From assembly GCA_934661005.1 (NCBI GenBank), contig CAKUIK010000003.1, positions 998 to 64,997 on the forward strand: a stretch of 64,000 nt of DNA, in the 5' to 3' direction. The position numbers were made by a program, and so were the translations under genes. Shown here piece after piece: positions 10,264 through 48,844 of this stretch. The notes under the pieces were generated by a model. That model was not told the origin of the DNA. It saw nothing but the letters and a program-made list of their open reading frames with translations, and did not search any database. Within the stretch, counting starts at the first letter, position 1. Every line of letters starts with the position of its first letter. Source of the DNA: an uncultured Slackia sp. Lineage in GTDB: Bacteria; Actinomycetota; Coriobacteriia; Coriobacteriales; Eggerthellaceae.

Positions 10264-12156
10264 ATGGAGAGCCATCGCATTCTCGATATGATTTCGTCCC
10301 CCGCGGACTTAAAGCTCCTCACCAACGAGGAGCTTTCCATACTCGCGTCGGAAATTCGCGAGCAAATCATTATGACCACGTCGAAGACGGGCGGCCATGT
10401 GGCGCCGAGCCTTGGCGTGGTCGAACTTATTCTGGCATGCCATAGCGTGCTCGATTGCCCGCATGACAAGTTGCTTTTCGATGTGGGGCACCAGTCGTAT
10501 GCCCACAAGCTCGTAACGGGCCGCCTGGGCGAATTCGACACCTTGCGCCAGTTCGGCGGTATGTCGGGTTTCCCGAAAGCGAGCGAAAGCGAATACGACG
10601 TGCACCCTTCCGGCCATGCATCCGATTCGGTTTCGGTGGCGCTGGGCCTTGCCATGGCGCGCGATTTGAATGGCGGCGATGAGAAAATCGTCACCATCAT
10701 CGGCGACGCGTCGCTTTCGGGCGGCATGGCGTTTGAAGCTCTCAATCAGCTGGGTCAGTTGCAAACGCCCATGGTTATTATTCTGAACGACAACGAGATG
10801 TCGATTTCGCGCAACGTGGGTGCGTTCGCTCGTTATTTGGGCGAAAAGCGCGCGAGTCGCGAATACACGCGTACGCGCGATTCGGTACAAAGTGCGCTCG
10901 AGGCAAGCGGTCCGCTTGGCCGCGGCCTGGTCGATTTGGGCCGCAACGCGAAAGATTCTTTCAAGCAAATGGTCATTCCGGGTGAAATGCTCTTCGAAAA
11001 GCTCGGCATCACGTGCACGGCGCCCATTCCCGGCCACGATATCGCTGCGCTCAAGCGTGCGCTGCGCGTGTGCCTCGAAGCCGACGGCCCCACGCTTCTG
11101 CATGTGGTTACCAAAAAGGGCAAGGGTTACGGTCCCGCAGAAGAGAACCCCAGCAAGTTCCACGGCATTGGGCCATATGACATCGCGACGGGCGAAGTGA
11201 AGAAGGGCTCAAGTACGGCGCCGAAATATACGAGCGTGTTCTCGAAAGCCATCGTTGCTGAAGCTGAGGCGAATCACGATATCGTCGCTATCACAGCTGC
11301 CATGAAAGACGGTACGGGTCTTGCCGAGTTCGCCGAGAAGTTCCCGAAGCGCTTCATCGATACGGGTATCGCTGAAGAACACGCGGTGGCACTTGCGAGC
11401 GGTTTGGCGCTTGGCGGGAAAAAGCCCGTCGTGTGCATTTACTCGACATTCATGCAGCGCGCGTTTGACCAGCTCGTAATTAATAACGCTCTTGCGAACA
11501 CGAATGTGGTGTTCTGCCTCGATCGCGCAGGGCTCGTGGGCGACGATGGCCCTACGCACCACGGCGTGTTCGATATTGCGTATGGCCGCATGGTGCCTGG
11601 CGTTCGCATGATGGCTCCTTCCGACGAGGTCGAGCTTGTGCATATGCTGCATACGGCATTGACGCTCGAAGGCCCCGTCATGCTTCGTTGGCCGCGCGGT
11701 GAGGCTCGTGGCGTCGAGCTTCCTGCCGAGCCCCAGGTGCTCGAAGAGGGCAAATCGCGCACGACGCGCGAGGGCAGCGATGTGGCGATTCTTGCGTTCG
11801 GCCGCATGGTGCAAGAGGCGGAAGGCGCTGCCGACATGCTTGCCGAACAGGGGATTTCTGTGCGCGTTGTGGATATGCGCTGGGTGAAGCCGTTTGACGA
11901 GGAAGCGGTTCGCAAGGCCGCGGTCGAATGCAAGCTTGTGTGCACGGCAGAAGAGGGCGCCATTGAGGGCGGCATTGGCGAGGGCATTCTCGAGGCGCTC
12001 GCTGCAGACCCGCCGGCTCAGGTTCCTCCCGTGCTCACGTTCGGCATTCCCGACGAATTCGTTGAGCAGGGCAAGGTGTCGCAGTTGCATCATATGCTTG
12101 GCATCGATGCTGAGGGCATGGCGGCTCGCATTCGCGAGAAATATGCGGAGCTGTAG
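10264..12156 (+). CDS. dxs: 1-deoxy-D-xylulose-5-phosphate synthase
   Basis: MESHRILDMISSPADLKLLTNEELSILASEIR...GGHVAPSLGVVELILACH...GDASLSGGMAFEALN. GGGAG RBS before ATG 10264. The track ORF starts at 10228. Confidence 0.93.
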   Translation: MESHRILDMISSPADLKLLTNEELSILASEIREQIIMTTSKTGGHVAPSLGVVELILACHSVLDCPHDKLLFDVGHQSYAHKLVTGRLGEFDTLRQFGGMSGFPKASESEYDVHPSGHASDSVSVALGLAMARDLNGGDEKIVTIIGDASLSGGMAFEALNQLGQLQTPMVIILNDNEMSISRNVGAFARYLGEKRASREYTRTRDSVQSALEASGPLGRGLVDLGRNAKDSFKQMVIPGEMLFEKLGITCTAPIPGHDIAALKRALRVCLEADGPTLLHVVTKKGKGYGPAEENPSKFHGIGPYDIATGEVKKGSSTAPKYTSVFSKAIVAEAEANHDIVAITAAMKDGTGLAEFAEKFPKRFIDTGIAEEHAVALASGLALGGKKPVVCIYSTFMQRAFDQLVINNALANTNVVFCLDRAGLVGDDGPTHHGVFDIAYGRMVPGVRMMAPSDEVELVHMLHTALTLEGPVMLRWPRGEARGVELPAEPQVLEEGKSRTTREGSDVAILAFGRMVQEAEGAADMLAEQGISVRVVDMRWVKPFDEEAVRKAAVECKLVCTAEEGAIEGGIGEGILEALAADPPAQVPPVLTFGIPDEFVEQGKVSQLHHMLGIDAEGMAARIREKYAEL

Positions 12157-13218: not shown

Positions 13219-13340
13219 CCGTTTCGCCCCATCTAAAATTAACGATATTAATTCCTAATTAGTATTCCATTTTGCTCACTTTCGTTTTAATATGATACCC
13301 AACAGGTAACATATCGGCAACGATACAAGGGGGTTTGGAA

Positions 13341-14786
13341 ATGGACGCATTGTTCGACGTGGCATTACTTTCGCGAATTCAGTTCGCGGTCACGGTGGCC
13401 TACCATTTCATATTCGTTCCGCTTTCGATAGGCTTGGGCCTTATCACGGCGATTTTTGCGACGAAGTACTATCGAAGCCGCGATGAAAAAGATGGCGCAG
13501 CCATGCATTTCTGGGTGCGCATCTTTACGGCGACGTTCGCCATTGGTGTTGCGACGGGCATCACCATGGAGTTCTCTTTTGGAACCAACTGGGCCGATTA
13601 CTCGCGCTTCGTAGGCGATATTTTCGGCGCGCCGCTTGCTGCCGAAGCTCTGTTCGCCTTCTTCTTGGAATCGGTCTTCCTTGGCGTTTTGCTCTTTGGG
13701 GAAAAGAAGGTGTCGCCTAAGTTCTATACCGTGTCGGCTTGGCTCGTGTGGGCTGGATCGTGTTTGAGCGCGCTGTGGATTCTTATCGCTAACTCTTGGA
13801 TGCAAACGCCGGCCGGCGCGGCGCTCGCGAGCGATGGCTCGAAGGCCGTTATCACCGATTTTCTCGCAGCGGCTTTCAATCCTTCGACCCTGCCGCGCTA
13901 CACGCACGTGATTGTGGCGCTGCTTATTTTGGGTGCGTTCGTGTCTATGGCGGTTGGAGCGTGGTACCTGCTGAAAGGCAAGCATGCCGATTTCGCGATG
14001 AAAACCGTGCGCATCGGCGCTGTTGTGGGCATTGTCGCCTCGTGCGCGATGATTGTGACGGCTCACGCTTCGGCAGTGGAGGTATCGGAAGAACAGCCCA
14101 CGAAGCTCGCCATGATGGAGGGTATGTATAACGACGAAGTGCCGCCGCTGTACGCTTTCGGCTGGGTCGATGAGGAAAGCCAGCGGGTCATCACGCCGTT
14201 CGCGATTCCCGGTGGCACGAGCTTCCTAGCGACGGGCACGTGGGATACCGAATACGCCGGCCTTAATTCGCTCGCCGAAACCGAGAAGTATGGCGAAATG
14301 GATGTCGCAGACATGCCGGTTAATTTGGTATTCCAGTCGTATCACCTGATGGTTGCGATGTATGGACTCATTATGCTCACTGCGATTCTCGCGATTGTGT
14401 TCTCACTGCGCGGTGGGCGCATCGCGAATATGCGTTGGCTGCAGAAGCTCCTTGTTATATCGCCCCTATTTCCGTTTATCGCCATCCAGGTTGGTTGGAT
14501 TACCGCCGAGGTCGGCCGTCAGCCGTGGGTGGTGTATCCATCGACGTCGGGGCCCGATGGCGTGAGCCTTCTCACGAATAATGCCATTTCGCAGGCGGTA
14601 TCGGCTCCCGAGCTGCTGCTTACGCTGGCCCTGTTCGCGGTGGTGTACGTGTTCTTGTTCATTGGTTGGGTGCGTGTGATTTCGCACTTCATTAAGCGCG
14701 GTCCCGTCGATGATGTCATGGTCGCCGAAAGCGCCCCGGTGGCCGAGCCTGCCGCGAAGGCTTGCAATGCGAAGGATGGTGAATAG
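13341..14786 (+). CDS. cydA: Cytochrome bd oxidase subunit I
   Basis: LLSRIQFAVTVAYHFIFVPLSIGL...GWITAEVGRQPWVVY. AAGGGGG RBS before ATG 13341. Confidence 0.93.
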   Translation: MDALFDVALLSRIQFAVTVAYHFIFVPLSIGLGLITAIFATKYYRSRDEKDGAAMHFWVRIFTATFAIGVATGITMEFSFGTNWADYSRFVGDIFGAPLAAEALFAFFLESVFLGVLLFGEKKVSPKFYTVSAWLVWAGSCLSALWILIANSWMQTPAGAALASDGSKAVITDFLAAAFNPSTLPRYTHVIVALLILGAFVSMAVGAWYLLKGKHADFAMKTVRIGAVVGIVASCAMIVTAHASAVEVSEEQPTKLAMMEGMYNDEVPPLYAFGWVDEESQRVITPFAIPGGTSFLATGTWDTEYAGLNSLAETEKYGEMDVADMPVNLVFQSYHLMVAMYGLIMLTAILAIVFSLRGGRIANMRWLQKLLVISPLFPFIAIQVGWITAEVGRQPWVVYPSTSGPDGVSLLTNNAISQAVSAPELLLTLALFAVVYVFLFIGWVRVISHFIKRGPVDDVMVAESAPVAEPAAKACNAKDGE

Positions 14787-14788
14787 CG

Positions 14789-15811
14789 ATGAGCGTTCTT
14801 GCTGTGCTGTGGTTCTTCTTGATATTCGTGCTTATTGCGGGCTATTTCGTGCTCGATGGGTTCGATTTGGGCGTGGGCGTGCTCTACCGTGCGCTCGCGA
14901 AAACCGATTCTGAGCGCGCTCTTGTGCGCCGCAGCATCGGACCTGTGTGGGATGGCAATGAGGTGTGGCTGCTCACGGCGGGCGGCGCGCTGTTCGCCGC
15001 GTTTCCCGCGGCGTATGCCACGACGTTCTCGGGGTTCTATTTGGCCGTTATGCTCGTGCTTTTCGGCCTTATCGTTCGCGCGGTGTCGCTCGAGTTCGGC
15101 GCGCACGATCCCAAATGGAGCCGCGTGTGGGATGCGTGTTTCACGGTTGGGTCGTTTTTGCCGGCGCTCCTGCTGGGCGTAGCGCTTGGCAACGTGATTG
15201 CTGGCGTGCCGCTCGCGGTAAACGGCGACTATGCGGGCGTGCCGCTGCTTGGCTTGCTATCGCCGTTTACGCTTGTCGTTGGCGCGCTGGGGTTTGCGAT
15301 GTGCATGGAGGCGGGCGCCGCATGGGTGTCGCTTAAGACTGAGCGGGCGAGTGCGGTGCATGCGCGTGCGGAAAAGCACCGCCGCGTGTGGCAAATTGCG
15401 GCTCTCGCGTTGTTTGCGGTGGCGACCGTGCTTGCATTTGCCGTGGTGAAGCCGCAGTTTGCTCCGGGTATGTTTGGTGTGGGCGTGATTTTCGCCGTAG
15501 CGTTCGTCGCATGCATCGCGTTGTCGATCGTACAGGCGAAGAAGGGCAACGACCTGGTCGCCTTCGTGCTGCAATCGGCTGCGGCGGTGTGTTTGGTGGC
15601 GTTGGCGGCGGTGTCTTTGTTCCCGAATTTGGTGGTTGCAACGCCGGGGAGCGTGGGTGAATCCATTACCCTTATGAGCGCGGCGTCTTCCGACACCTCG
15701 CTTGCATGGATGACGGGCATTGCGTGCATTGGCGTGCCGTTGGTACTGGTGTACCACGTGATTGCCTACCGGATTTTCAGCGGGCGCCTCGCCGAAGAGG
15801 ACGTGGCATAA
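14789..15811 (+). CDS. cydB: Cytochrome bd oxidase subunit II
   Basis: LWFFLIFVLIAGYFVLDGFDLGVGVLY...WDGNEVWLLTAGGALFAAFP. Confidence 0.93.
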   Translation: MSVLAVLWFFLIFVLIAGYFVLDGFDLGVGVLYRALAKTDSERALVRRSIGPVWDGNEVWLLTAGGALFAAFPAAYATTFSGFYLAVMLVLFGLIVRAVSLEFGAHDPKWSRVWDACFTVGSFLPALLLGVALGNVIAGVPLAVNGDYAGVPLLGLLSPFTLVVGALGFAMCMEAGAAWVSLKTERASAVHARAEKHRRVWQIAALALFAVATVLAFAVVKPQFAPGMFGVGVIFAVAFVACIALSIVQAKKGNDLVAFVLQSAAAVCLVALAAVSLFPNLVVATPGSVGESITLMSAASSDTSLAWMTGIACIGVPLVLVYHVIAYRIFSGRLAEEDVA

Positions 15812-16087
15812 ATGAGCGGCATAAAGAACATGAGGGGCGTTGCTCAAGGGCGCAGGAGCGTTGGTGAAGAGCGGGGAAGCGCCGCCGATGGGCAAAGGGG
15901 TGCATCGGAAAAACGCCTCTACGAGAAGTGGCTGTCGGTGCTCTGCGCAGGTATGGCGATCTTTGGCGTTGGCGTGATGCTCGTGGGCTATAAATCTCCG
16001 ACGGTTGGCTTGGTCGCGACCGTGGCGCTGCTGGTAATCGCATCGTCGCTTCTGGCAATGAAGGCAAAGGCGAACGTGAGGGAATAG
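15812..16087 (+). CDS. Small two-helix membrane protein abutting cydB (function unknown)
   Basis: The ATG directly follows the cydB TAA. The C-terminal half, WLSVLCAGMAIFGVGVMLVGY...LVATVALLVIASSLLAM, is two hydrophobic helices. GAAGAGGA lies upstream. Confidence 0.4.
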   Translation: MSGIKNMRGVAQGRRSVGEERGSAADGQRGASEKRLYEKWLSVLCAGMAIFGVGVMLVGYKSPTVGLVATVALLVIASSLLAMKAKANVRE

Positions 16088-16154
16088 GATTCTGCATTGA
16101 TGGGCGGCTATTCGAACCGCGGTTGGCGTTGCAGCCGATTCCTTTGCAGAAAAG

Positions 16155-16189
16155 AATAGGGCGAGTCGTATCGAGCGGCTCGCCCTATT
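16155..16189. terminator. Stem-loop between convergent cyd and ABC operons (bidirectional terminator candidate)
   Basis: AATAGGGCGAG-13 nt-CTCGCCCTATT. Confidence 0.6.
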
Positions 16190-16239
16190 GCGTTTGGGTC
16201 GGAAACGAGGAAAGCGATGCTTTAGCCGGATGGGCCGGT

Positions 16240-16914
16240 CTACAGGTCTTTCCGCTGGTAAATCGACGTGCTTATAGCGCAGCTGGCAGCGAAGAGCGCA
16301 AGCGATACGACGGTCAACATGGTGAACAAAAAACTTAAGTGGGAATCGGCCCAGACTCCGAAACGTTCAAGGAGCAGGGGATCGATTGCTTGCTCCGCAA
16401 TTGCGAAACAGATGCAACCAGCGAGAACGGCGAAGCACATAAGATAGCGTACGCCTTTCGTGGCGCCGAATTTGATGAGGGGCGGTTCACCAATGGCTAC
16501 CATGATGATGACCGAGAAGGTCGCAGTGAATGACCCTGCGGCTATCTCAATTGTCGGCATCGTTTCGAAATCGTGGATGAACGAAGGCAAAATGGCATTG
16601 AGTGCAATGCCAAGTACTGCCGCGCATGCGGCGGTAGCGAGGGATGCAAGAAGAATCGAGCCATATCGTGCAGCAATGACATCGCGGCGCGAGAAGGGCA
16701 GCGATGCGCGATAACGCCCCCATCCGTTTTGATCGTCATATGAGGCGAGCGAGAGCGTGAGAATCATGGGAACCATGGCGCTTACGCAAGCGGCGGCCGA
16801 AATACAATTGCCTATGGCGAACGTCATAATGGCGCAAATGGGCACGAGTATCACGGCGAACGCCGGCATGAAGGTGCTCAAGATGGCAAATTCCGATTTC
16901 AATGCCGCTTTCAT
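16240..16914 (-). CDS. ABC-2 type transporter permease
   Basis: 224 aa with about 6 TM helices. Its start overlaps the upstream ATPase stop by 4 nt. Confidence 0.75.
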   Translation of the reverse strand: MKAALKSEFAILSTFMPAFAVILVPICAIMTFAIGNCISAAACVSAMVPMILTLSLASYDDQNGWGRYRASLPFSRRDVIAARYGSILLASLATAACAAVLGIALNAILPSFIHDFETMPTIEIAAGSFTATFSVIIMVAIGEPPLIKFGATKGVRYLMCFAVLAGCICFAIAEQAIDPLLLERFGVWADSHLSFLFTMLTVVSLALFAASCAISTSIYQRKDL

Positions 16915-17792
16915 TGCGCAGCTCCTTTCAGCATAAAACGCAGGTAGTCTTCTATGGAGGCGTGGTCGCAGGGGATTTCGGGGAATGCTTCGGCGAATTC
17001 GAATCGATTAGGAACAAGCACGTCGCAGTTGAATTCGCGGTGCTCGGCGCGTGCTTCCTCGACGCATGCAAGAATCGCACGGGCCTGCTCTGCAGTGCAA
17101 TGAGCGATGCCTGCCATGTCGGTAATTTCCTCGCGAGGCATATCGAAAATGATGCGGCCGCCATCGATGCCCACAACGCGATCGGCGATGCGGTCCAAAT
17201 CGCTTGTGATGTGGCTTGACAGCAGCACGCCGCGATTGTCCTGGACGGTGAATTCGCGCAAAATGGTGAGCGTTTCATCGCGAGCGATGGGGTCGAGCCC
17301 CGCAGTGGCTTCGTCGAGCACGAGCAAATCGGCCTTATGCGAAAGCGCCACGGCGAGTTGCAGCTTCATGCCCATGCCGCGGGAGAGGTCCTTCACTTTC
17401 GCCTTGCGCGCGAGTGAAAAGCGTTCGGCGAGGTGCCAGAACTGTGCTCTATCCCAGGCGGGAAAGGCGAGCGCGAGGCAGCGCTCCACCTGTGCAATAG
17501 TGAATTCCGTCGGATAGGGGCACGTGTCGAACACCACTCCGATGCGCGAGCGCACGCGGCGCTGTGCGCTGTCGGGCACGTTCGGGCCGAAGGGCTCGCC
17601 GAGCAGGCGCACCTCGCCGGCGTCAAGTTTCATGAGCCCCAACGCGGCTCGAATGGTTGTGGTTTTGCCCGCGCCGTTTGCGCCGACGAAACCGACGACC
17701 TCGCCTGGCGCTACGGCAAGGTTCACGTTGCACAGCGCGAAGCTGTCACCAATCTTGCGCTGTGCATCTTTGATTTCCAAAAGGTTCGTCAT
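16911..17792 (-). CDS. ABC transporter ATP-binding protein
   Basis: Walker A GANGAGKTT, signature LSRGMGMKLQ, Walker B LLVLDEAT. Confidence 0.9.
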   Translation of the reverse strand: MTNLLEIKDAQRKIGDSFALCNVNLAVAPGEVVGFVGANGAGKTTTIRAALGLMKLDAGEVRLLGEPFGPNVPDSAQRRVRSRIGVVFDTCPYPTEFTIAQVERCLALAFPAWDRAQFWHLAERFSLARKAKVKDLSRGMGMKLQLAVALSHKADLLVLDEATAGLDPIARDETLTILREFTVQDNRGVLLSSHITSDLDRIADRVVGIDGGRIIFDMPREEITDMAGIAHCTAEQARAILACVEEARAEHREFNCDVLVPNRFEFAEAFPEIPCDHASIEDYLRFMLKGAAQ

Positions 17793-17804
17793 GATGCCGC
17801 CTTT

Positions 17805-18185
17805 CTATTCCAGCGTTTCGGGGGCTACGAGGTCGAGCGCCTTGTGCATATCGGCGCGGGTGACGCCGAGCGTTTCGGCGAGCGCCGCCGCTTGTGCGAG
17901 CAGTGCCTCCATGCGCCGCAACTCCTCTTCGCGCAGAAGTCCCTGATTGCCCGCTGCGACGAAGCAGCCCTTGCCCTGCACGGTTTCGATGAAGCCCGCT
18001 TCCTCCAAATCGGAGTAGGCGCGCTTGGTGGTAATGACGCTTACGCCGAGGCCGTTTGCAAGCGCGCGGATCGATGGCAGCTTCTCGCCGCTCACCAACG
18101 TGCCCGCCAAAATATGCGCTCGAATCTGCGACGCGATTTGCTCGTAGATGGGCTTGTCGCTCGAGTTGGATAGGATGATGTCCAC
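17805..18185 (-). CDS. GntR-family (YtrA-type, short) transcriptional regulator
   Basis: PIYEQIASQIRAHILAGTLVSGEKLPSIRALANGLGVSVITTKRAYSDLEEAGFI. AAAGGA RBS before GTG at 18185. The longer track ORF (to 18272) has no RBS. Confidence 0.85.
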   Translation of the reverse strand: MDIILSNSSDKPIYEQIASQIRAHILAGTLVSGEKLPSIRALANGLGVSVITTKRAYSDLEEAGFIETVQGKGCFVAAGNQGLLREEELRRMEALLAQAAALAETLGVTRADMHKALDLVAPETLE

Positions 18186-18199
18186 GATGGTTCCTTTAC

Positions 18200-18233
18200 G
18201 TGTATATAACCGGTAAGCACAGTATATATACAC
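18200..18233. promoter_or_regulatory. Inverted repeat GTGTATATA-N16-TATATACAC; candidate YtrA-type operator
   Basis: Located 15-48 nt upstream of the GntR start on the coding strand. Confidence 0.5.
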
Positions 18234-18489
18234 TATGCACAGTTGCGCAAGGGGGCGTTTTGCTTTTTTCAATCGGGCTGGTGCGGTGCGTGCAAAGGCT
18301 TTCGCTTCGCGATTTCTCGGCTTGGATAAATTGCGAGTGTATCGTGGGCGATATGCGGGAATATTGCTCGAGGCTGAGGGAGAATTCTTTACGCCGTAAA
18401 AAGAAACAACCCAGCAAGCCGAGCATCACGTGCCTTTGCGGGGCTGTCTTCGAAACACGGTGGGTGTTAGTGTGGGGTTTGGAGCGCGC

Positions 18490-19377
18490 CTAACGATTTA
18501 CTCGTTTCGTGTGGAGCGCATCGATGACCTTGTCGGCGCTTGCGTCGATAAGAATCGATTGGTGTTCGATTTCGACAGGCGCCACCGCTTCGCCGAGATT
18601 CACGCAGGCGTACGTGGCATGTTGGTTTTCGGCGGCCATTTGCCAAAACGGATACTTGATGATGCCGGGCGTGTTGCCGCCGACGCCGAATTCCAAAAAG
18701 AGCGTTCGCATGCCTTTGTGTCGATGAAGGAAATCGCGGTATCGATTGGCGGCGGCGTGCCAGCCTTCGTCTTCGACGAAGGTGCCATCGGAGCGAAGGT
18801 TCATTGTTGCGTGTGATCCACAATGGGGGCAATAGGGCACAAGCTCGCTTGGTATACGCATGTTGTCTTGTTGATCCACCATGGCTAGAACGCTCTCCTC
18901 GTTGCTCCAGGTTTTTTGGCAGCACGGGCGGCTGCATTGGAAGAGGCCGTAATCGCCTTGCGTATAGAACAGGCGATGCTTGTCGAACCCCGCGCGTTGG
19001 AAGCAGTGATCGACGTTGGTGGTGAGCACGAAGTAATCGCGGCCGCGCATGAGTTCGAGCAGCTGCTCATAGACAGGCTTTGGAATTGGGTCGAAACGGT
19101 TGCACGCGATGTATCGGCTCCAAAACGCCCAATACTATTCAAAAGTTTTATAGGGATAGAATCCGCCTGCATACATATCGGTAAAGCCATATTTCGCGGC
19201 GAAATCGCCAAAAAGGCGCTCGAAACGTTCGCCTGCATATGTGTAGCCCGCTGCGGTGGAAAGTCCTGCGCCCGCGCCTATTACAACGGCGTCTGCCGAC
19301 TCAATCGCGTTTTGCAGTTTATCGATTTGTTCCGAGAAGCTCTTGGTAGATTGCTTCGTTAGACGGGAGAAATACAT
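18490..19377 (-). pseudogene. SIR2-family protein of the macrodomain-linked SirTM type, interrupted by one in-frame TAG (19135-19137)
   Basis: Track ORFs 19135..19377 (AVVIGAGAGLSTAAGYTY...YPYKTFE*) and 18490..19050 (DYFVLTTNVDHCFQRAGF...TQGDYGLFQCSRPCC...CPHCGS) are in the same frame. The 28 codons between them (YWAFWSRYIACNRFDPIPKPVYEQLLEL) are open. Confidence 0.8.
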
Positions 19378-20104
19378 CGAATATCACCTTGAGATGGGGG
19401 TCGTTTTCCTGTAGGTAGCCAGTGACGGTATCGAGGGCGATGCGCGCTGCGTCGCGTTGGGGATAGCCGAACACGCCTGTTGATATGCAGCAGAATGCGA
19501 TGGTGCCCAAATGGCGCTCGGTTGCCGCGGTAAGGCATCGCTCATAGCACTGGCGAAGCAGCAGCTCATCGGTATTGCTTGGGCGGGCGTTTGCGACGAT
19601 GGGACCCACGGTGTGGAACACGAAGCGGCTCGGCAAGTTGAATGCGGGCGTGACTTTCACGCGGCCTGTTGGTTCGGGGTGCCCCTGGGAGCACATGAAC
19701 TTGGCGCACGCGATGCGCAGTTGCATGCCGGCGAAAGTGTGAATAGCGTTATCGATGCAATGGTGTCCGGGCGCGAAGCACCCGAGCATCTGATCATTCG
19801 CGGCGCTGACGATGGCATCTGCGGCAAGAAGCGTGATATCTCCGCGCCAGAGGGCAATGCGGCCGCGATAATCGAGCGTTTGTGCGCTTGTCGCGCCTCC
19901 GCGCTCAATAAGGCGTCGTTGCAGGTAAGCGTCTTGGACGGCGAGCATATCGGGCATTAGGGCTTCTGGCATGCGCGTATTCATGAGCGCCCGCAGCAGT
20001 TCTCGCTGTTTTGTTTCTTCCTCGGGGATTTTCGCCAAGGAAGATTCTCCGCGTTCCTCGAGAAGAGCCCTGATTAAAAAGAGCCTGCGTTGCGCCTGAT
20101 TCAT
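19319..20104 (-). CDS. Macrodomain protein (protein-ADP-ribose hydrolase type)
   Basis: RIALWRGDITLLAADAIVSAANDQMLGCFAPGHHCIDNAIH...VFHTVGPIV. ATG 20104 shares one base with the rSAM stop (TGATG). Confidence 0.85.
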   Translation of the reverse strand: MNQAQRRLFLIRALLEERGESSLAKIPEEETKQRELLRALMNTRMPEALMPDMLAVQDAYLQRRLIERGGATSAQTLDYRGRIALWRGDITLLAADAIVSAANDQMLGCFAPGHHCIDNAIHTFAGMQLRIACAKFMCSQGHPEPTGRVKVTPAFNLPSRFVFHTVGPIVANARPSNTDELLLRQCYERCLTAATERHLGTIAFCCISTGVFGYPQRDAARIALDTVTGYLQENDPHLKVIFDVFLPSNEAIYQELLGTNR

Positions 20105-21150
20105 CAGCCTAGATCCTTCCAACATTGCGGGTCGGCATCGTACATGTCGCCCGTGTAGCCAAACGTGACGGCGGGGCATCCGCGACACCAGTCGAACAAC
20201 TCGCACGTTGAGCATTTTTTGAATTTCTTGAATTCGCGCTTGGCTTCCATCGCAGGCGAGAAGAACAGACTTTCGAGCGTGTTCTCTGCTACATTTCCGA
20301 TCTTGCTTTCCATGCGGCGGCAGGCGTACACGTCGCCCGTGGGCAGCACGGTCATGTGGCCCGTTCCGCAGTGACATCCGTCGTATATCATGCCCGGTTT
20401 GGCGTCTTTAGGAATGGCGAAGCGTCCCTGTTCCCATAAAAGCAACGTCCATAGATGGTCTTTGAGCTGGAAGAACGTTTTGCAACCACGTGATTGGTGA
20501 TAATCTATGCGCTCTTGCGCCGCAAGGAGTACGTTGCGATATTCCAGGGGTTCCATATGGAACTCGTCGCGCGCCTGGCCCGAGGTGGGGCAGTAGCGCC
20601 CGAAGGCGAACACATCGACCTCGAGGCTTGCCACCAAATCGATGAGCTTCGGAAGCTCGTGCGCGTTCGTGCTCGAAACGGTATTCATGATGGCGACCCA
20701 AATGCCTGCGCGCTTGAGGCATTCAATGGCGCGCAGCGTATCGGCGAACGAGCCGGGCTTACGGAAATAATCGTGCGTAGCATCGAGCCCGTCGAGTGAG
20801 AGCTGGTATTTGCGGCAGCCGAGTTCTTTCATGCGACGGCAGGTTTCGTCGTCCAAATGGAAGGGATTGCCCATGACGCACCACATGAAACCACGTTCAT
20901 GCAAAAGCTCCGCTAGCCGCCAGAAGTCGGGGTGCAAGATGGGGTCGCCACCAGTCACGTAGAAATAGGGCTGTCGATTGAGCTTTTCGCAAAGCTCCTC
21001 GGCTTGATCGACGACTTCCTCCATTTGGCTCCACGGCATGCGCGTGAATCCAGCGCAGTCGCCGTTGGCGAAAATGTAGCAATGCTTGCAGCGCTGGTCG
21101 CATTCATCGGTGATGTGCCATTGAAATGCAAATGCGGGCTTGGGGGCCAT
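20104..21150 (-). CDS. Radical SAM enzyme with C-terminal SPASM domain; no N-terminal RRE domain
   Basis: CDQRCKHC (C-x3-C-x2-C) at residues 17-24. SPASM Cys pattern CHCGTGHMTVLPTGDVYAC...CSTCELFDWCRGC...QCW. 348 aa. GAAAGGA RBS. Confidence 0.9.
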   Translation of the reverse strand: MAPKPAFAFQWHITDECDQRCKHCYIFANGDCAGFTRMPWSQMEEVVDQAEELCEKLNRQPYFYVTGGDPILHPDFWRLAELLHERGFMWCVMGNPFHLDDETCRRMKELGCRKYQLSLDGLDATHDYFRKPGSFADTLRAIECLKRAGIWVAIMNTVSSTNAHELPKLIDLVASLEVDVFAFGRYCPTSGQARDEFHMEPLEYRNVLLAAQERIDYHQSRGCKTFFQLKDHLWTLLLWEQGRFAIPKDAKPGMIYDGCHCGTGHMTVLPTGDVYACRRMESKIGNVAENTLESLFFSPAMEAKREFKKFKKCSTCELFDWCRGCPAVTFGYTGDMYDADPQCWKDLG

Positions 21151-21213: not shown

Positions 21214-21825
21214 TTAGAGGCGCTCGATGGCGTCGGCGGGGCAGTTTTCGGCGCACGAGCCGCAGTGCAAGCAATGATTCTGTTGGATGCGGTACATATC
21301 TCCAGGCGTGATGCACTTTTGAGGACAGTGCTTCAAGCATGTGCCGCAGCCAATGCAGTCATCGGTTATTCGGTAGCCTTTGGCGGAAGGGGGCGTGCCG
21401 TCGAGCATATACACCGCACGCTCGATGGGATGGGTTCCGAGGTTGAAGTAATCGATTGCGATGTTGCTCACCTTGAAGATGATGCCGATATCGCGCGTGT
21501 CACCTGGATATACGTTGGAGAGGTAGGGCTGTTCGGAAAAAATTACGTCAATCCACTTTTTCTGCTCATTTTGCGGCGCGGGTTTGGTTGCGCCGCTCAT
21601 GCGAATCATTTCGTTGAAGCGCGTGTGCACGAGCGTTTGGATTCTGCCGTCCGCCAAAAGCTGCTGAGTCATTTCTTTGCCACGAGCAGTAAAGAAATAG
21701 ATGGCATCGGGCTCGTAATGAACGGCGCTCACGCAGCGAATTTGAGGGGCGCCGGTTGCGTCGGTCGTTGCGAGCGAAAGCGTTCCAGCGAGTTTCATTT
21801 TTGCGAGACAGGTTTGCGCGTCCAT
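21214..21825 (-). CDS. PNPOx-like FMN-binding split-barrel domain fused to a 2x[4Fe-4S] ferredoxin domain
   Basis: The N-terminal ~140 aa are PNPOx-like (LSLATTDATGAPQIRCVSAV...IYFFTARGKEM). The C-terminus has CIGCGTCLKHCP and CLHCGSCAENCP. AGAAAGGG RBS. Confidence 0.7.
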   Translation of the reverse strand: MDAQTCLAKMKLAGTLSLATTDATGAPQIRCVSAVHYEPDAIYFFTARGKEMTQQLLADGRIQTLVHTRFNEMIRMSGATKPAPQNEQKKWIDVIFSEQPYLSNVYPGDTRDIGIIFKVSNIAIDYFNLGTHPIERAVYMLDGTPPSAKGYRITDDCIGCGTCLKHCPQKCITPGDMYRIQQNHCLHCGSCAENCPADAIERL

Positions 21826-21850: not shown

Positions 21851-22078
21851 TTACTGAGCGTCGGCGGTGCCGCAGGCGGGCGCAGCCTTCGGGTCGGCGG
21901 TGCCGCAGGCGGGCGCAGGGTCAGCGGAGCCGCAGGCGGGTGCGGCCTTCGGATCGGCGGTGCCGCAGGCGGGCGCAGGCTCGGCGGTGCCACATGCGGT
22001 GCCGCAAGCAGGAGCCGCTTTGGGGTCGGCGGTGCCGCAAGCGGCGAAGGCGGCGACGTTGGAGAGGTTCTCGGACAT
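21851..22078 (-). CDS. 75-aa Cys/Asp-repeat peptide; candidate RiPP precursor (ranthipeptide-like, six C-x3-[D/E] motifs)
   Basis: MSENLSNVAAFAACGTADPKAAPACGTACGTAEPAPACGTADPKAAPACGSADPAPACGTADPKAAPACGTADAQ. GAAAGGA RBS 6 nt before ATG 22078. First gene of the rSAM array. Embedded in track ORF 21851..22171. Confidence 0.7.
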   Translation of the reverse strand: MSENLSNVAAFAACGTADPKAAPACGTACGTAEPAPACGTADPKAAPACGSADPAPACGTADPKAAPACGTADAQ

Positions 22079-22330
22079 GGTGATTCCTTTCGACGTGACG
22101 CATCGGAGGAGGCGTCGTGATGAAGCGCGTTTTCGCGCATGGCTATCATCCGAAAAAGTGAATTCATGCAAAAGAAGGCACTAAACTATTACCCGCTTAC
22201 CAAAAGGTAAGTAGGTGCAATTTCGTTAGCGGCTGCGATAATGGAATCGCTTCGTGGGCAGGTGCGATTTGGCCGCGCGAAAAGCCTCGCCCAATAATGT
22301 GGTGCCGCGAATATGCGAGAAAGGATTGGC

Positions 22331-22663
22331 ATGCTTACCAAGGAAGAACTGCCCCCGTGCCCTGTTGCCACGTGCTTTCAGCTGTTCGGCAACAAATGGA
22401 AGATTTATATCATTCAGCAGCTCATAGACCAGCCGTATGGCTTCAATGCCTTGCAGCGGGCCATTCCTGGCATCAGCCAAAAGGTACTCTCGTCCAATCT
22501 CAAAGAAATGGAGTCGGCGGGCCTTGTCACTCGTACGGTGATTCCCGAAACGCCCATTCGTACGGAATATGCGCTTTCTGACGTTGGTAAGAGCCTTCTG
22601 CCCCTGATAGATTCCATGGTCGAATGGGGAACGGGGTACCAGCGGCTTGTGCTTGAGGCATAA
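22331..22663 (+). CDS. HxlR-family (MarR-like winged helix) transcriptional regulator, divergent from the peptide/rSAM array
   Basis: [22 protein letters not shown]...[42 protein letters not shown] before ATG 22331. Confidence 0.85.
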
Positions 22664-22676: not shown

Positions 22677-23507
22677 ATGCTCACTGTTGGATGCCACTTG
22701 TCTACTTCGAAGGGCTTTGCCGCCATGGGGCGCACGGCGCTTTCCCTTGGCGCGAATACGTTCGCATTTTTCACGCGCAACCCTCGTGGCGGCTCGGCCA
22801 AGGCAATTGATGCGGCCGATGCCGCGGCATTGCGCGAGCTCATGGCTGAACACGACTTTGGCCCGTTGGTGGCGCATGCCCCCTATACGCTCAACCCTTG
22901 CTCGGCCAAGCCCGAGGCGCGCGAATTCGCTCGCATGTGCATGGCCGACGATTTGGTGCGTATGGAAGCCGTTCCGCACAGCTACTACAATTTCCACCCG
23001 GGCAGCCACGTGAAACAGGGCACAGAATGCGGCATTGAGCTCATTGCGGGCCTGCTCAACGAGGTGCTCGCGCCCGAACAAACCACTACGGTGTTGCTCG
23101 AAACCATGGCGGGCAAGGGTACTGAAGTGGGTCGCACGTTCGAGGAGCTTGCGGCGATCATCGAGCGCGTTGAACGCGCCGATCACGTGGGCGTGTGCCT
23201 CGATACCTGCCATGTATGGGACGGTGGCTACGATATCGTGGGCGACCTCGACGGCGTGTTGGAGGAATTCGATTGCGTGGTGGGGTTGCCGCGCTTGCGC
23301 GCAGTGCATATCAACGATTCGAAAAACTCATGTGGCGCGCACAAAGATCGCCACGAGAAAATCGGCCAAGGCTTCATCGGCGTAGAAGCATTCGAGCGCA
23401 TCGTGAACCACCCTGCGCTGCGCGAGTTGCCGTTCATTCTGGAAACCCCCAATGAACTGCCTGGCTATGCCGAGGAAATCGCTTTGCTGCGCAGCCTTGC
23501 CGAATAG
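22677..23507 (+). CDS. nfo: Endonuclease IV (deoxyribonuclease IV)
   Basis: MLTVGCHLS...[10 protein letters not shown]...NFHPGSH...[12 protein letters not shown]...[13 protein letters not shown]...HINDSK...[22 protein letters not shown]. Confidence 0.9.
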
Positions 23508-23593
23508 ACTTTAATAATAATCGAACGTATGTTTGGTATAATAAAGGAGGAGACTATTAGCAACGCTTGACGTTATTAACGCGAGGAGTTACT

Positions 23594-23875
23594 ATGATTG
23601 CATCGTTCGGGGATAAAGACACCGAAAAGCTCGCGCGAGGCATAAGGGTTCGACGTTTCGTTTCCTTCGAGAGAGTTGCCCTTCGCAAATTACGACAGCT
23701 TCAGGTTTCGGTATCTTTGGACGATTTGCGCATTCCTCCAGGAAATCGCCTTGAATCGTTGAAGGGCAATCTTGAGGGCTGGCACAGCATTCGAATCAAT
23801 GACCAGTTCAGAATCATTTTTCAATGGCAAGATGGAAATGCTGAACATGTGCAAATAGTTGACTACCATAGCTAA
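23594..23875 (+). CDS. higB: HigB toxin (RelE/ParE superfamily)
   Basis: MIASFGDKDTEKLARG...RKLRQLQVSVSLDDLRIPPGNRLESLKGNLEGWHSIRINDQFRIIFQW. Confidence 0.8.
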   Translation: MIASFGDKDTEKLARGIRVRRFVSFERVALRKLRQLQVSVSLDDLRIPPGNRLESLKGNLEGWHSIRINDQFRIIFQWQDGNAEHVQIVDYHS

Positions 23876-23888
23876 GGGGTGAAGCGAT

Positions 23889-24194
23889 ATGTCAGATTTT
23901 CTTGGCCCTGTGACTCCGGGCGAACTTTTGAAAGAGGAGTTTTTGGAGCCGATGGGCATTTCTCAATATCGCCTCGCGAAAGAAATCGGCGTGCCCGCGC
24001 AACGCATCGGCCAAATAGTTCTTGGCAAGCGTTCCATTACGGCCGATACCGATTTGCGCTTGTGCGCATTCTTCGGGCTGTCCGATGGCTATTGGCTGCG
24101 CGCGCAGGCTGCATACGATATCGAGATTGCTCGAAGGAAGATTGCTCCTGAGCTTAAGAAAATTCGTCCGTGGAATGCGGTGGCTGTGTTGTAG
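23889..24194 (+). CDS. higA: HigA antitoxin (XRE-family HTH)
   Basis: PGELLKEEFLEPMGISQYRLAKEIGVPAQRIGQIVLGKRSITADTDLRLCAFFG. Confidence 0.85.
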   Translation: MSDFLGPVTPGELLKEEFLEPMGISQYRLAKEIGVPAQRIGQIVLGKRSITADTDLRLCAFFGLSDGYWLRAQAAYDIEIARRKIAPELKKIRPWNAVAVL

Positions 24195-24240: not shown

Positions 24241-24277
24241 GAAGGGCTGCCATTGTGACGGCCCTTCGTTCGTTTCT
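24241..24277 (+). terminator. Stem-loop after higA
   Basis: GAAGGGC-13 nt-GCCCTTC followed by GTTCGTTTCT. Confidence 0.4.
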
Positions 24278-24317
24278 GCGCGATAATGGCCGCATTCATT
24301 TCGAAGGGGGACGTGTT

Positions 24318-26801
24318 ATGACGCCTATCAACGATAATTCTGCGCGCGCGATGCGCGCTGTGCGCTGCGACGAAAACATGGCAGCCGTGCTGCGCGGTGA
24401 GCGTTTTTTGGTATTCGACGGCGCGATGGGAACCATGCTGCAGCAGGCGGGGCTTGAGGCAGGCGAGCTTCCGGAGCTTTTATGCCTTACGAACCCCGAG
24501 GAAATCACGGGCATCCATGCTCAATATGTGGAGGCGGGAAGCGAAGTTGTGAGCGCCAACACCTTCGGCGCGAATCGCCGCAAGCTTGGCGATGCCGCCA
24601 GCGTGGCCGATGTGTTCGCGGCGGCCATCGCATGCGGCAAGGCATCGGGCGCGAAATACGTTGCAGCCGATATTGGCCCTACGGGCGCGCTGCTCGAGCC
24701 GCTTGGCACCATGCCCTTCGATGAAGCATACGAGCTGTTCGCCGAGCAGGTGCGCGCGGCCGACGCGACTGGCGCCGATTTGTTCATCATTGAAACCATG
24801 GCCGACCTTCTTGAGATGAAGGCAGCCATTCTTGCCGCGAAGGAAAACTCCGATCTGCCCATTTTCGCGACCATGACCTTCGGCGAAGACGGTCGCACGT
24901 TCTTGGGCACGAGCCCGCAAATCGCGGCCATCGTGCTTTCGTCGCTCGGCGTCGATGTGCTGGGCGTGAACTGCTCGCTTGGTCCCAACGATTTGCGCCC
25001 CATGGTAAGCGAAATGCTCAAGGCGTCCACGGTTCCCGTTATGGTGCAGGCCAACGCGGGCTTGCCGAGCATCGTCGATGGCAAGACCGTATTCTCGGTG
25101 ACGCCCGATGAATACATTGAAGCCGTGGCGGCGATGGTCAGTGAGGGCGTGACGGTCGTGGGCGGCTGTTGCGGCACGAACCCCGCCTATATCGCGAAAG
25201 AGGCGGCGCTCGTGGCGGGCCGCGTGCCGGTTGCGCGCGATGTGGCTTTCGCCTGTGGCATTACGTCGGCAAGCCACGCCACGCTTCTAACTGGTCGCGA
25301 CGTTGCCACTATTGGCGAGCGCATCAATCCCACGGGCAAGAAGAAACTCAAGGCCGCGTTTCGCGAGGGCAACCTCGACTACGTGCTGGGCGAGGCGATT
25401 TCCCAAACGGAAGCGGGCGTCGATGCGCTCGACGTGAACGCCGGCTTGCCCGAGATTGATGAGGCGGCGACGCTCGTGTCGCTCGTGGGCAAAATCCAGG
25501 GCGTATCGCCCTTGCCCCTGCAAATCGACTCGTCCGACCCGGTTGCCGTGGAGGCCGCCGTGCGCGTGTATTCCGGCAAGCCGATCATCAACTCCGTGAA
25601 CGGCAAGCAAGAAAGCCTCGATGCCGTGCTGCCCATTGTCAAACATTATGGCTGCGCGGTTGTGGGCCTCGCGCTCGATGAGCAGGGCATACCTCCTACC
25701 GCTGAAGGCCGCTTCGCTGTTGCGCAGCGCATCGTGGAAGAGGCCGACAAATACGGCATTCCGCGCAGCGATATCTTCATCGACTGTCTGGTTATGGCCG
25801 CGTCGACCAACCAAGCCGAAGTCGTCGAGATTCTGCGCGCTATCACAATGGTGAAAGAGCGCCTGGGCGTGCGCACGGTGCTCGGCGTGTCGAATGTGAG
25901 CTTTGGTTTGCCTTTGCGCGAAATCGTGAATGCCACCTTCTTGGCGGCGGCGTTTTCGGCGGGCCTCGACATGCCTATTCTGAACCCGCTTTCCGCGCGC
26001 TATCGCGAAATCGTCGATACGTGGCGCGTGCTGTGCGGGCAAGACGTCTCGGCGCAGGGCTATATTTCCGAATACGCGAACAAAAGCATGTCGGCCGTGG
26101 CCGGTGCTCCTGGGGCGACAACGGGGCAGGGGAATGCCTCTGCGCCTGCGCCCGCAGCGGGCGACGCCTTCGACGATGCGTCCGACTTCGGTCTGCGCCG
26201 CTTTGTGGTCACGGGCCGCAAGGCGAACATGCCCGAAGCGGTTTCGAAATTGCTCGAAACGTGCGACGCCATGGAGGTCATCAATGGCCACCTGATTCCC
26301 GCCCTCGACGATGTGGGCGAGCGTTTCGAGAAGGACAAATTCTTCCTGCCCCAGCTCATGGCTTCGGCTGAAGCGGCGAAGGCGGGCTTCGACGTGATTA
26401 AAGAGCAGGGTGGAAGCGGCGCCGTCGCCGACAAGGGCTCGGTCGCCATTGCCACGGTGAAAGGCGACATCCACGACATTGGCAAGAATATCGTGCGCAT
26501 GCTGCTCGAAAACTATGGCTACACGGTATACGACTTGGGCCGTGACGTGGATCCGCAGGTCGTGCTCGATTGCGTGCGCGAGCACGACATCAAGCTCGTG
26601 GGCCTCTCGGCGCTCATGACCACAACCGTGCGCGGCATGGAAGACACCATCGCGCTTCTGCGCGAGCAGGCGCCCGATGTGAAGGTGTTCGTGGGTGGCG
26701 CCGTTATCACGCCTGAATATGCCGAAATGGTTGGCGCCGACTACTACTGCAAAGATGCCGCCGAAAGCGCGAAGGTCTGTGCCGAGGTGCTGAGCGCGTA
26801 G
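24318..26801 (+). CDS. metH: Cobalamin-dependent methionine synthase, short form (Hcy-, pterin- and B12-binding modules; no AdoMet reactivation domain)
   Basis: FLVFDGAMGTMLQ...ANTFGAN (Hcy S-methyltransferase). GVSNVSFGLP (pterin-binding). ATVKGDIHDIGKNIV (B12 D-x-H-x2-G). Ends ~827 aa. Confidence 0.85.
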   Translation: MTPINDNSARAMRAVRCDENMAAVLRGERFLVFDGAMGTMLQQAGLEAGELPELLCLTNPEEITGIHAQYVEAGSEVVSANTFGANRRKLGDAASVADVFAAAIACGKASGAKYVAADIGPTGALLEPLGTMPFDEAYELFAEQVRAADATGADLFIIETMADLLEMKAAILAAKENSDLPIFATMTFGEDGRTFLGTSPQIAAIVLSSLGVDVLGVNCSLGPNDLRPMVSEMLKASTVPVMVQANAGLPSIVDGKTVFSVTPDEYIEAVAAMVSEGVTVVGGCCGTNPAYIAKEAALVAGRVPVARDVAFACGITSASHATLLTGRDVATIGERINPTGKKKLKAAFREGNLDYVLGEAISQTEAGVDALDVNAGLPEIDEAATLVSLVGKIQGVSPLPLQIDSSDPVAVEAAVRVYSGKPIINSVNGKQESLDAVLPIVKHYGCAVVGLALDEQGIPPTAEGRFAVAQRIVEEADKYGIPRSDIFIDCLVMAASTNQAEVVEILRAITMVKERLGVRTVLGVSNVSFGLPLREIVNATFLAAAFSAGLDMPILNPLSARYREIVDTWRVLCGQDVSAQGYISEYANKSMSAVAGAPGATTGQGNASAPAPAAGDAFDDASDFGLRRFVVTGRKANMPEAVSKLLETCDAMEVINGHLIPALDDVGERFEKDKFFLPQLMASAEAAKAGFDVIKEQGGSGAVADKGSVAIATVKGDIHDIGKNIVRMLLENYGYTVYDLGRDVDPQVVLDCVREHDIKLVGLSALMTTTVRGMEDTIALLREQAPDVKVFVGGAVITPEYAEMVGADYYCKDAAESAKVCAEVLSA

Positions 26802-48248: not shown

Positions 48249-48300
48249 TTCGACTGCTAAACAAAACTGGGACAGTTTCCTCGTAAGTAACTGTCCCACC

Positions 48301-48326
48301 GCGCCTCCTTCGGGAGGCGCTTTTTA
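48301..48326 (+). terminator. Rho-independent terminator after adk
   Basis: GCGCCTCC-ttcg-GGAGGCGC followed by TTTTTA. Confidence 0.85.
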
Positions 48327-48351
48327 TGATTCGAACGAATTGACGAAAACC

Positions 48352-48814: not shown

Positions 48815-48844
48815 GTAGGGAAATCGCCATGGAGATTTCCCTAC
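48815..48844. promoter_or_regulatory. 11-bp-arm inverted repeat upstream of the secreted-protein gene
   Basis: GTAGGGAAATC-gccatgga-GATTTCCCTAC. Confidence 0.4.

Follow-up and report, generated by a model that had tools for sequence, protein, structure and literature searches.

Organization of the locus

The DNA analyzed here, referred to below as the window, is a stretch of 64,000 nucleotides (nt) from an uncultured Slackia sp. (contig CAKUIK010000003.1, positions 998 to 64,997). It contains a group of five closely spaced minus-strand genes, running from 22078 to 18490, which encode, in this order, an ACGX-repeat precursor peptide, a PNPOx-like protein with a ferredoxin portion (PNPOx-Fdx), a radical S-adenosylmethionine (rSAM) maturase, a macrodomain protein, and a sirtuin. 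A regulator gene of the HxlR family is transcribed divergently from them. The features of the locus are as follows.

22313 to 22663, plus strand: HxlR-family (DUF24/MarR-type) regulator, divergent from the operon, start ATG at 22313 or 22331
22197 to 22210: candidate HxlR operator, the palindrome TTACCAAAAGGTAA between hxlR and the peptide gene
21851 to 22078, minus strand: ACGX-repeat precursor peptide, 75 amino acids (aa), 7 Cys
21214 to 21825, minus strand: PNPOx-like (split-barrel flavin) domain plus 2x[4Fe-4S] clostridial-type ferredoxin, 203 aa
20104 to 21150, minus strand: rSAM/SPASM maturase of the ACGX system (TIGR04340), 348 aa
19319 to 20104, minus strand: predicted zinc-dependent macrodomain (Zn-Macro, protein-ADP-ribose hydrolase), 261 aa
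18490 to 19377, minus strand: gene for a predicted class M sirtuin (SirTM) ADP-ribosyltransferase, with an in-frame TAG

The TGA stop codon of the rSAM gene and the ATG start codon of the macrodomain gene share the sequence TGATG at 20102 to 20106, and the ATG of the sirtuin gene at 19377 sits 59 nt within the macrodomain open reading frame (ORF). Both overlaps had been claimed in an earlier reading of this sequence (the original prediction), and both are present. Overlaps of 35 to 56 nt between the macrodomain and sirtuin genes are also found in the related loci L049, L056, L065, and L072. The nearest genome, L001, is a Slackia metagenome-assembled genome (MAG) from a Hadza gut metagenome, whose rSAM protein is 99% identical to that of the window.

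SirTM and Zn-Macro genes

The sirtuin matches SpySirTM (PDB 5A3A) over its full length, residues 16 to 288, with an E value of 2.3e-73, and contains the motifs IGAGAGLS, VLTTNVDH, YTQGDYGLFQC, C-x4-CC...C-x2-C, and GVGGNTP. Class M sirtuins are recognized by a Gln replacing the catalytic His, by Asn118 and Arg192, and by the motif GVGx[NT]TP (Rack et al. 2015, PMC4518038). In the alignment with SpySirTM, an invariant Gln (QG; Gln137 in SpySirTM) stands where the HG motif has its catalytic His, and the equivalents of Asn118 and Arg192 (in TTNVD and MNLR), together with GVGGNTP, fall in invariant columns (N106, R180, and G217 to P223). The protein is predicted from these residues to be a bona fide SirTM, in agreement with the class hallmarks that had been reported for it.

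A single in-frame TAG at codon 81 (19135 to 19137, minus strand) breaks the sirtuin coding sequence, with no decay elsewhere in the ORF. Since L001, a 95%-identical Slackia MAG, has GAG (Glu) at the same codon, the TAG is specific to the present sequence; all other homologs are intact. Either the gene has recently acquired a nonsense mutation or the base was miscalled. In locus L168, a DUF1848 ORF (10761 to 11879) continues into a C-terminal SirTM fragment, and SirTM is degenerate in L165, which indicates that the writer decays in some lineages. Three long sirtuins (P0128 to P0130, 463 to 510 aa) were considered as Rosetta-stone fusions and rejected, as they consist of tandem or duplicated SirTM fragments and are uninformative; they are likely artefacts, either frameshift-merged tandem paralogs or assembly artefacts.

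The macrodomain scores 314 bits against the family NF003163 ("protein-ADP-ribose hydrolase"; cut-off, 272 bits) over residues 2 to 259, and it aligns end to end from residue 1 with MorMacro (PDB 8RSI; E = 3e-70), which supports its start codon. Other PDB matches are SauMacro (5KIV and 8RSL) and SpyMacro (8RSM). Zn-Macros are characterized by an eight-residue zinc loop, C-x4-H-x-C, that replaces the Gly-rich catalytic loop and is followed by Dx3H (PMC11490716). The window protein has the zinc loop CFAPGHHC followed by IDNAIH (DNAIH being the Dx3H element), where MorMacro has CFIPMHNC and IDNIIH, and the N-terminal three-helix bundle and MacroD-type fold are indicated by the NF003163 score and the 8RSI alignment. 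By these features, the protein is assigned as a predicted Zn-Macro. No hydrolases other than Zn-Macros are known to cleave Cys-ADP-ribose, and Zn-Macros cleave Asp/Glu-ADP-ribose as well (PMC11490716).

In Staphylococcus and Streptococcus, the extended SirTM operon comprises OYE, LLM, GcvH-L, Zn-Macro, and SirTM, along with LplA2 (Rack et al. 2015, PMC4518038; Ariza et al. 2024, PMC11490716). No SirTM substrate besides GcvH-L is known, nor are the targets and role of other SirTM/Zn-Macro systems (PMC11490716). With four examples each of GcvH-L, LplA2, OYE, and LLM as tblastn queries, taken from the classical operons recovered in L081 to L089 and L112, nothing better than an E value of 0.1 was found in the whole 64-kb window, and no matches were found in 80 related ACGX loci. 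The absence of GcvH-L and LplA2 that had been noted for this locus is borne out by these searches.

ACGX peptide and radical SAM maturase

The rSAM protein belongs to TIGR04340 ("radical SAM/SPASM domain protein, ACGX system"), for which it scores 524.9 bits (E = 9e-158), the cut-off being 400 bits. It contains the Pfam Radical_SAM and SPASM domains and a CxxxCxxC motif at residues 17 to 24. The second-best and nearest characterized family is the SbtM thio(seleno)oxazole maturase family TIGR04082, at 182 bits against a cut-off of 350 bits, and the score against the PapB family NF047865 is 60 bits against a cut-off of 340 bits; the protein is thus a member of neither, and its likeness to PapB is confined to the CX3D substrate motif. 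SbtM forms thiooxazole from Cys (PMC11002830), and PapB introduces Cys-Asp cross-links in CX3D motifs (PMC9413430). These enzymes resemble the window maturase in being rSAM/SPASM proteins that act on repeated Cys motifs, with six CX3D motifs in PapA, the substrate of the PapB/PapA (freyrasin) ranthipeptide system. They differ in that the ACGX genes are coupled to ADP-ribosylation enzymes and come without a leader-protease/exporter.

The peptide gene is preceded by AGGA 6 nt 5' of its ATG and consists of tandem repeats with a period of 33/60 nt. The encoded peptide has the leader MSENLSNVAAFA followed by ACG[ST]A[DE]P and ACGT units, with seven ACGx units in total. Upstream of rSAM_ACGX genes, 74 distinct homologous peptides were found, which contain 3 to 12 Cys and a conserved C-x3-D-P motif. 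The number of repeats varies freely, with 75 aa and 7 Cys in the window versus 55 aa and 5 Cys in the 95%-identical L001 (L001:9134-9301), and the repeat array is hypervariable in Collinsella, in which the peptides range from 44 to 118 aa and contain 4 to 12 Cys. No conserved protease or exporter was found with the ACGX loci. The lack of these genes, together with the variation in repeat number, points to an intracellular, capacity-type role, such as that of a thiol, redox, or metal carrier, and the product is probably intracellular rather than a secreted natural product. The GntR and ABC-2 transporter genes (16240 to 18272) were considered as a peptide exporter and rejected, as they are found only in Slackia and Parolsenella loci.

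The original prediction described a small acidic Cys/Asp-repeat peptide next to an rSAM enzyme. These gene identities hold, but the prediction missed that the system is already catalogued, TIGR04340 and TIGR04341 being its bioinformatically defined and uncharacterized families. The window agrees with this system in its rSAM protein above cut-off, next to which lies an ACGX-repeat peptide gene whose product scores below the TIGR04341 cut-off; the family names cover only the rSAM/peptide pair, and the company of HxlR, SirTM, Zn-Macro, and PNPOx-Fdx is newly added here. Within this company, the ACGX family gains a physiological context for the field of ribosomally synthesized and posttranslationally modified peptides (RiPPs), namely, one that would be intracellular and linked to redox stress.

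PNPOx-ferredoxin, HxlR regulator, and candidate operator

PNPOx-Fdx matches the Pfam PNPOx_N and Fer4 families; its PDB matches are ferredoxins and, for the N-terminal domain, 2HHZ. The protein is 50 to 75% identical within ACGX loci and falls to approximately 30% elsewhere, where SirTM holds approximately 60%.

The regulator matches PF01638 with 92 bits and, among NCBIfam families, is nearest to those of the redox transcription factors RrpB/RrpA. A homolog adjoins 88% of ACGX loci and 88% of non-GcvH-L SirTM loci. In HxlR/DUF24 regulators, an N-terminal cysteine serves to sense oxidants and electrophiles, and nitroreductase, flavin reductases, quinone-type MDR reductase, and glutaredoxin are typical cargo of their regulons. 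An N-terminal Cys in a CPV motif is kept in the window protein, its metagenomic relatives, and archaeal homologs, and from family knowledge we infer that this residue is the redox sensor. The palindrome TTACC-N4-GGTAA between hxlR and the peptide gene is one of just two matches in the window, where 0.17 would be expected. A match of at least 9/10 positions upstream of hxlR is present in 58% of 112 related loci versus 0.6% of control windows (approximately 100-fold enrichment). This enrichment is seen in modules with and without ACGX, and the palindrome is kept across Coriobacteriia and Clostridia (other sites are, e.g., L129:5603, L145:5597, and L164:5952); TTACC-N4-GGTAA is a plausible HxlR operator. 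Stress induction of the operon under the control of HxlR is likely, with oxidants or electrophiles as the presumed signal.

Conservation of the ACGX-SirTM linkage

One genome per GTDB species was scanned with an rSAM alignment, which yielded 80 loci that were then searched with the window proteins, and seven independent metagenomic loci were added from more distant rSAM homologs. Neighbors were assigned by tblastn with the window proteins and by precalled genes, as greedy ORF clustering gave antisense artefacts in high-GC loci. Counts were restricted to loci whose rSAM gene is flanked by at least 4 kb on its upstream side and at least 4.5 kb on its downstream side (n = 44). Since the genome-side sample is dominated by Collinsella, other lineages (Slackia, Olsenella, Eggerthella/Eggerthellaceae, Senegalimassilia, Ruminococcus, Oscillospiraceae, Lachnospiraceae, and unclassified Clostridia) were tallied apart.

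Collinsella (n = 20): HxlR 20, SirTM 20, PNPOx-Fdx 20, macrodomain 20, nitroreductase 3
Other lineages (n = 24): HxlR 21, SirTM 19, PNPOx-Fdx 16, macrodomain 14, nitroreductase 13

SirTM lies within 6.5 kb of ACGX in 39 of the 44 loci (20/20 in Collinsella and 19/24 in the others) and also adjoins ACGX in Ellagibacter; the macrodomain-SirTM pair is kept in 57 of the first 80 ACGX loci. At least 15 gene orders are found among the ACGX loci, across two phyla, in Coriobacteriia and Clostridia. Slackia and Olsenella share the order peptide-PNPOx-Fdx-rSAM-macrodomain-SirTM, whereas SirTM and the macrodomain lie beyond hxlR, on its far side, in Collinsella, and Eggerthella has the order rSAM-SirTM-macrodomain. 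In Senegalimassilia, some Eggerthellaceae, and L167, SirTM directly follows or overlaps the rSAM gene without a macrodomain; the rSAM gene of L041 is also directly followed or overlapped by SirTM. The Clostridia show a colinear order, peptide-rSAM-nitroreductase-PNPOx-Fdx-(DUF1848)-macrodomain-SirTM. Recurring cargo includes nitroreductase, glutaredoxin, MDR quinone-type reductase, and flavin mononucleotide (FMN) reductase. Because the linkage persists through extensive rearrangement across two phyla, ACGX and SirTM appear to be functionally coupled, and we consider it very probable that the linkage is functionally conserved. The neighborhood check proposed along with the original prediction, under which a co-occurrence limited to this genome would have spoken against it, thus shows the rSAM/peptide genes and SirTM recurring across Coriobacteriia and Clostridia.

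Two side observations were made among these loci. In clostridial ACGX operons, a gene for a DUF1848 protein of approximately 310 aa recurs, placed between those for PNPOx-Fdx/nitroreductase and that for the macrodomain (L049:12286-13221, L166:8704-9639, and others). In addition, L075 (JAMPEF010000054.1), labeled as an Alistipes senegalensis MAG, has an ACGX/SirTM cassette of the Clostridia type, which shares 60% identity with those of Oscillospiraceae; L075 is likely a binning contaminant rather than an occurrence in Bacteroidota.

An HxlR-SirTM module with variable redox cargo

Metagenome contigs were also scanned from the SirTM side, with an alignment headed by SpySirTM; this sample is biased by the search patterns TTNVDH[QC]F and LE[LI]GVG. 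Ten of the loci recovered are the classical OYE/LLM-GcvH-L-Macro-SirTM-LplA2 operon. The non-GcvH-L loci with at least 5 kb upstream (n = 32) contain a macrodomain in 31 cases, HxlR in 28, and, immediately upstream of the macrodomain, a PNPOx-Fdx of the same architecture in 20. The genes between hxlR and the macrodomain are variable and include those for an MBL-like protein (c13), a small PNPOx, an NAD(P)-binding protein, and a nitroreductase. In a neighbor-joining tree, the SirTMs of ACGX-linked and ACGX-free loci interleave, and the GcvH-L-type proteins form a separate clade at approximately 40% identity. Methanobrevibacter sp. YE315 has a codirectional hxlR-macro-sirTM operon (L163:7005-9638), flanked by genes for a small PNPOx, an aldo-keto reductase, a flavodiiron protein, and a rubrerythrin.

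These loci constitute a second kind of extended SirTM/Zn-Macro operon, which consists of HxlR, variable redox cargo, usually including PNPOx-Fdx, Zn-Macro, and SirTM, and of which the ACGX peptide and its rSAM maturase are one cargo. The relationship is asymmetric, with ACGX lying inside the module in 39/44 loci and the module lacking ACGX in 29/32. Like the extended GcvH-L operon, the window locus has adjacent, often overlapping, SirTM and Zn-Macro genes amid flavin oxidoreductases, a small acidic sulfur-bearing carrier that would need prior modification, and an oxidative-stress context. It differs in that GcvH-L, LplA2, OYE, and LLM are replaced by HxlR, PNPOx-Fdx, nitroreductase, and, in a subset, the rSAM-matured peptide, and in that its SirTMs are only approximately 40% identical to the GcvH-L-type clade.

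Published SirTM pairs fall into lone ones, those with a GcvH-L/LplA extension, and fusions, and the Zn-Macros of lone pairs do not demodify GcvH-L (PMC11490716). The lone pairs include those of Methanobrevibacter oralis (MorMacro, 8RSI), Enterococcus faecalis, and Treponema pedis; the window macrodomain is most similar to MorMacro, and the SirTMs fall in the same non-GcvH-L group. However, the M. oralis and YE315 pairs adjoin HxlR, and the bacterial ones among the loci scanned usually adjoin PNPOx-Fdx and other redox cargo. The "lone" SirTM/Zn-Macro pairs are therefore not alone but belong to an HxlR module of gut Coriobacteriia, Clostridia, and Methanobrevibacter. In the open-access literature searched, no publication on the ACGX/TIGR04340 system and none linking SirTM to radical SAM, ACGX, or HxlR was found, which is no proof of novelty; within that literature, the linkage is undescribed, as the original prediction had supposed. 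The component families (SirTM, Zn-Macro, TIGR04340, and HxlR) are known; going by that literature, their HxlR-governed combination would be new.

Candidate acceptors of ADP-ribosylation

The region from 18490 to 21150 is read here as the distal half of an HxlR-governed operon for redox or electrophile stress, which belongs to the wider module and in which, as in other operons with ACGX, the matured peptide is the favored acceptor of ADP-ribosylation. We give this reading as a whole a probability of roughly 0.35. Under oxidant or electrophile stress, the thiol-sensing HxlR (CPV cysteine, TTACC-N4-GGTAA operator) would free the operon. The flavo-FeS protein probably supplies electrons to the rSAM enzyme, which, from family knowledge, probably modifies the Cys of the C-x3-D-P units; the products may be Cys-Asp thioethers, as with PapB, or thiooxazoles, as with SbtM, for which mass shifts of -2 Da per CX3D unit or -4 Da per Cys, respectively, are predicted. 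The result would be an intracellular carrier with many sulfur sites. SirTM, with NAD+ as donor, would then attach a single ADP-ribose to an Asp/Glu or Cys acceptor of the module, and Zn-Macro would reverse the modification.

In the operons that bear ACGX, this acceptor would most likely be the matured peptide, since ACGX is confined to the module, the genes are translationally coupled, the peptide is rich in Cys and Asp, and there is an analogy to lipoyl-GcvH-L. Taken by itself, this choice of acceptor is tentative. ADP-ribosylation shields the lipoate (lipoyl dithiol) of GcvH-L from oxidation in S. aureus (PMC12440151). A more specific version is doubtful. In it, the matured peptide would be a ribosomally produced carrier of strict anaerobes that holds metals or redox equivalents at multiple sulfur sites (thioether or aromatic thiol/thiooxazole), and its Cys/Asp-derived sites would be reversibly ADP-ribosylated by SirTM/Zn-Macro.

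Several results weigh against this reading, and above all against the peptide as acceptor. The main argument is that SirTM is insensitive to its context and that modules without ACGX are the majority: the ACGX rSAM gene is present in only 3/32 non-GcvH-L SirTM loci, SirTM identity is 65% between ACGX and ACGX-free contexts and 66 to 70% within them, and no alignment column discriminates the ACGX-linked SirTMs, which favors an acceptor common to all modules over a peptide-specific one. In M. oralis, MorMacro, which had been crystallized to represent the lone pairs (8RSI), and SirTM lie in a minimal hxlR | macro-sirTM module (L161:7512-9633). Conversely, ACGX occurs without SirTM in approximately 20% of the non-Collinsella loci, which indicates that SirTM is dispensable for maturation, and C-x3-D-P is equally conserved where SirTM is absent. 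Thus, of the original prediction that reversible ADP-ribosylation is wired to an rSAM-modified peptide, the linkage stands, as it recurs widely, and the specificity does not. As for the window itself, the sole NCBIfam match of the peptide, TIGR04341, reaches 8.5 bits (12.6 to 19.3 bits in relatives) against a cut-off of 28 bits, a score that is probably depressed by low-complexity sequence; the nonsense codon in the SirTM gene means that the writer/eraser switch may be broken in the present sequence; and a promoter and terminator scan of 18.2 to 22.7 kb gave counts not above those of shuffled sequence, its sole suggestive site being a weak hairpin after the sirtuin stop codon, which was not used.

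The alternative that survives best, and one that is quite possible, is co-regulation only: SirTM/Zn-Macro would be a generic member of the HxlR regulon with targets encoded elsewhere (e.g., thiols or carboxylates exposed under stress), and ACGX would be one co-induced cargo. The indifference of the SirTM sequence to context, the three-gene minimal modules in Methanobrevibacter, and the high variability of the genes between hxlR and macro-sirTM (MBL-like c13, small PNPOx, NAD(P)-binding protein, nitroreductase, or ACGX) all fit this view. However, an almost complete confinement of ACGX to the module would be unusual for mere co-regulation, the rSAM gene is translationally coupled to the macrodomain or SirTM gene in several lineages, and the target is encoded in cis in the sole system studied (PMC4518038).

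The near-confinement of ACGX to the module also leads to a short list of testable acceptors, namely, the matured peptide, PNPOx-Fdx, and HxlR. If HxlR were the acceptor, SirTM would modify the sensing Cys or a nearby acidic residue and Zn-Macro would reset it, which would form a feedback loop in all non-GcvH-L modules and account for the conservation of SirTM whatever the cargo. HxlR is the sole near-universal partner besides the macrodomain (28/32 SirTM loci, 41/44 ACGX loci, and the archaeal minimal modules), and its conserved CPV cysteine would suit the ability of Zn-Macros to cleave Cys-ADP-ribose. Nevertheless, a regulator is expected beside its regulon in any case, HxlR is absent from approximately 10% of the loci, and there is no precedent in the HxlR family; we regard this alternative as unlikely.

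A role of PNPOx-Fdx or the rSAM enzyme as acceptor is about equally unlikely. ADP-ribosylation would in this case turn off an O2-sensitive Fe-S redox chain under stress, in a manner resembling DraT/DraG, which provide a reversible mono-ADP-ribosylation on/off switch of the nitrogenase Fe protein. The likeness lies in the switching of an oxygen-sensitive Fe-S redox system and is an analogy only, as DraT/DraG belong to the ART/ARH families, which are unrelated to sirtuins and macrodomains. Where PNPOx-Fdx lies directly upstream of the macrodomain, as in 20/32 SirTM loci, it takes the position of GcvH-L in the classical operon; it is also present in 36/44 ACGX loci, and in the window the rSAM stop codon overlaps the macrodomain start. 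On the other hand, PNPOx-Fdx is missing from approximately one-third of the modules, including the ACGX- and SirTM-bearing loci L062, L079, L167, L169, and L170, and its sequence diverges far more between contexts than that of SirTM (approximately 30% versus 60% identity).

Fortuitous adjacency, or an anti-phage NADase-type defense module unrelated to the rSAM cluster, could be suggested by the SIR2 domains of several defense systems and the pseudogene-like sirtuin ORF of the window but is highly improbable, being effectively refuted by a linkage kept through these gene orders in two phyla, by a sirtuin with every SirTM hallmark and neighbors that are redox rather than mobile or defense genes, and by PADLOC, which assigns the sirtuin, the macrodomain, and PNPOx-Fdx to no family and gives only generic pVip matches for the rSAM protein; the defense reading was rejected on the PADLOC result and the conservation of the locus.

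If the matured peptide is indeed the acceptor, SirTM would have a second known substrate, ADP-ribosylation would for the first time be seen to control a RiPP-type peptide, and Zn-Macros might gain their first physiological Cys-ADP-ribose substrate. The peptide would act within a previously unrecognized HxlR-SirTM stress module that is common to Bacteria and methanogenic Archaea. A culturable model with an intact system is Collinsella aerofaciens ATCC 25986 (L042).

Neighboring genes

On the plus strand, hxlR is followed by a further gene.

22677 to 23507, plus strand: endonuclease IV (nfo; TIGR00587, 295 bits)

The nfo ATG at 22677 lies 13 nt past hxlR on the same strand and is preceded by an AGGAGG ribosome-binding site. 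The adjacency of hxlR and nfo is also seen in L001 and not in other genera, and nfo is probably cotranscribed with hxlR in Slackia. Between nfo and a metH-like gene (24255 to 26801), candidates for a HigB-like toxin (102 aa) and a helix-turn-helix antitoxin (101 aa) were recognized at 23567 to 24194 from their translations only.

Downstream of the sirtuin gene, the segment from 13335 to 18272 encodes GntR, an ABC ATPase, and an ABC-2 permease (nearest families, PmtR/PmtA), followed by cydA/cydB (cytochrome bd oxidase). In L001, approximately 3.7 kb of extra DNA lies between the sirtuin and gntR genes. Farther along the window, the segment from 48001 to 52000 may have been acquired horizontally, because its G+C content drops to 0.48 to 0.50 versus approximately 0.58 to 0.60 elsewhere in the window.

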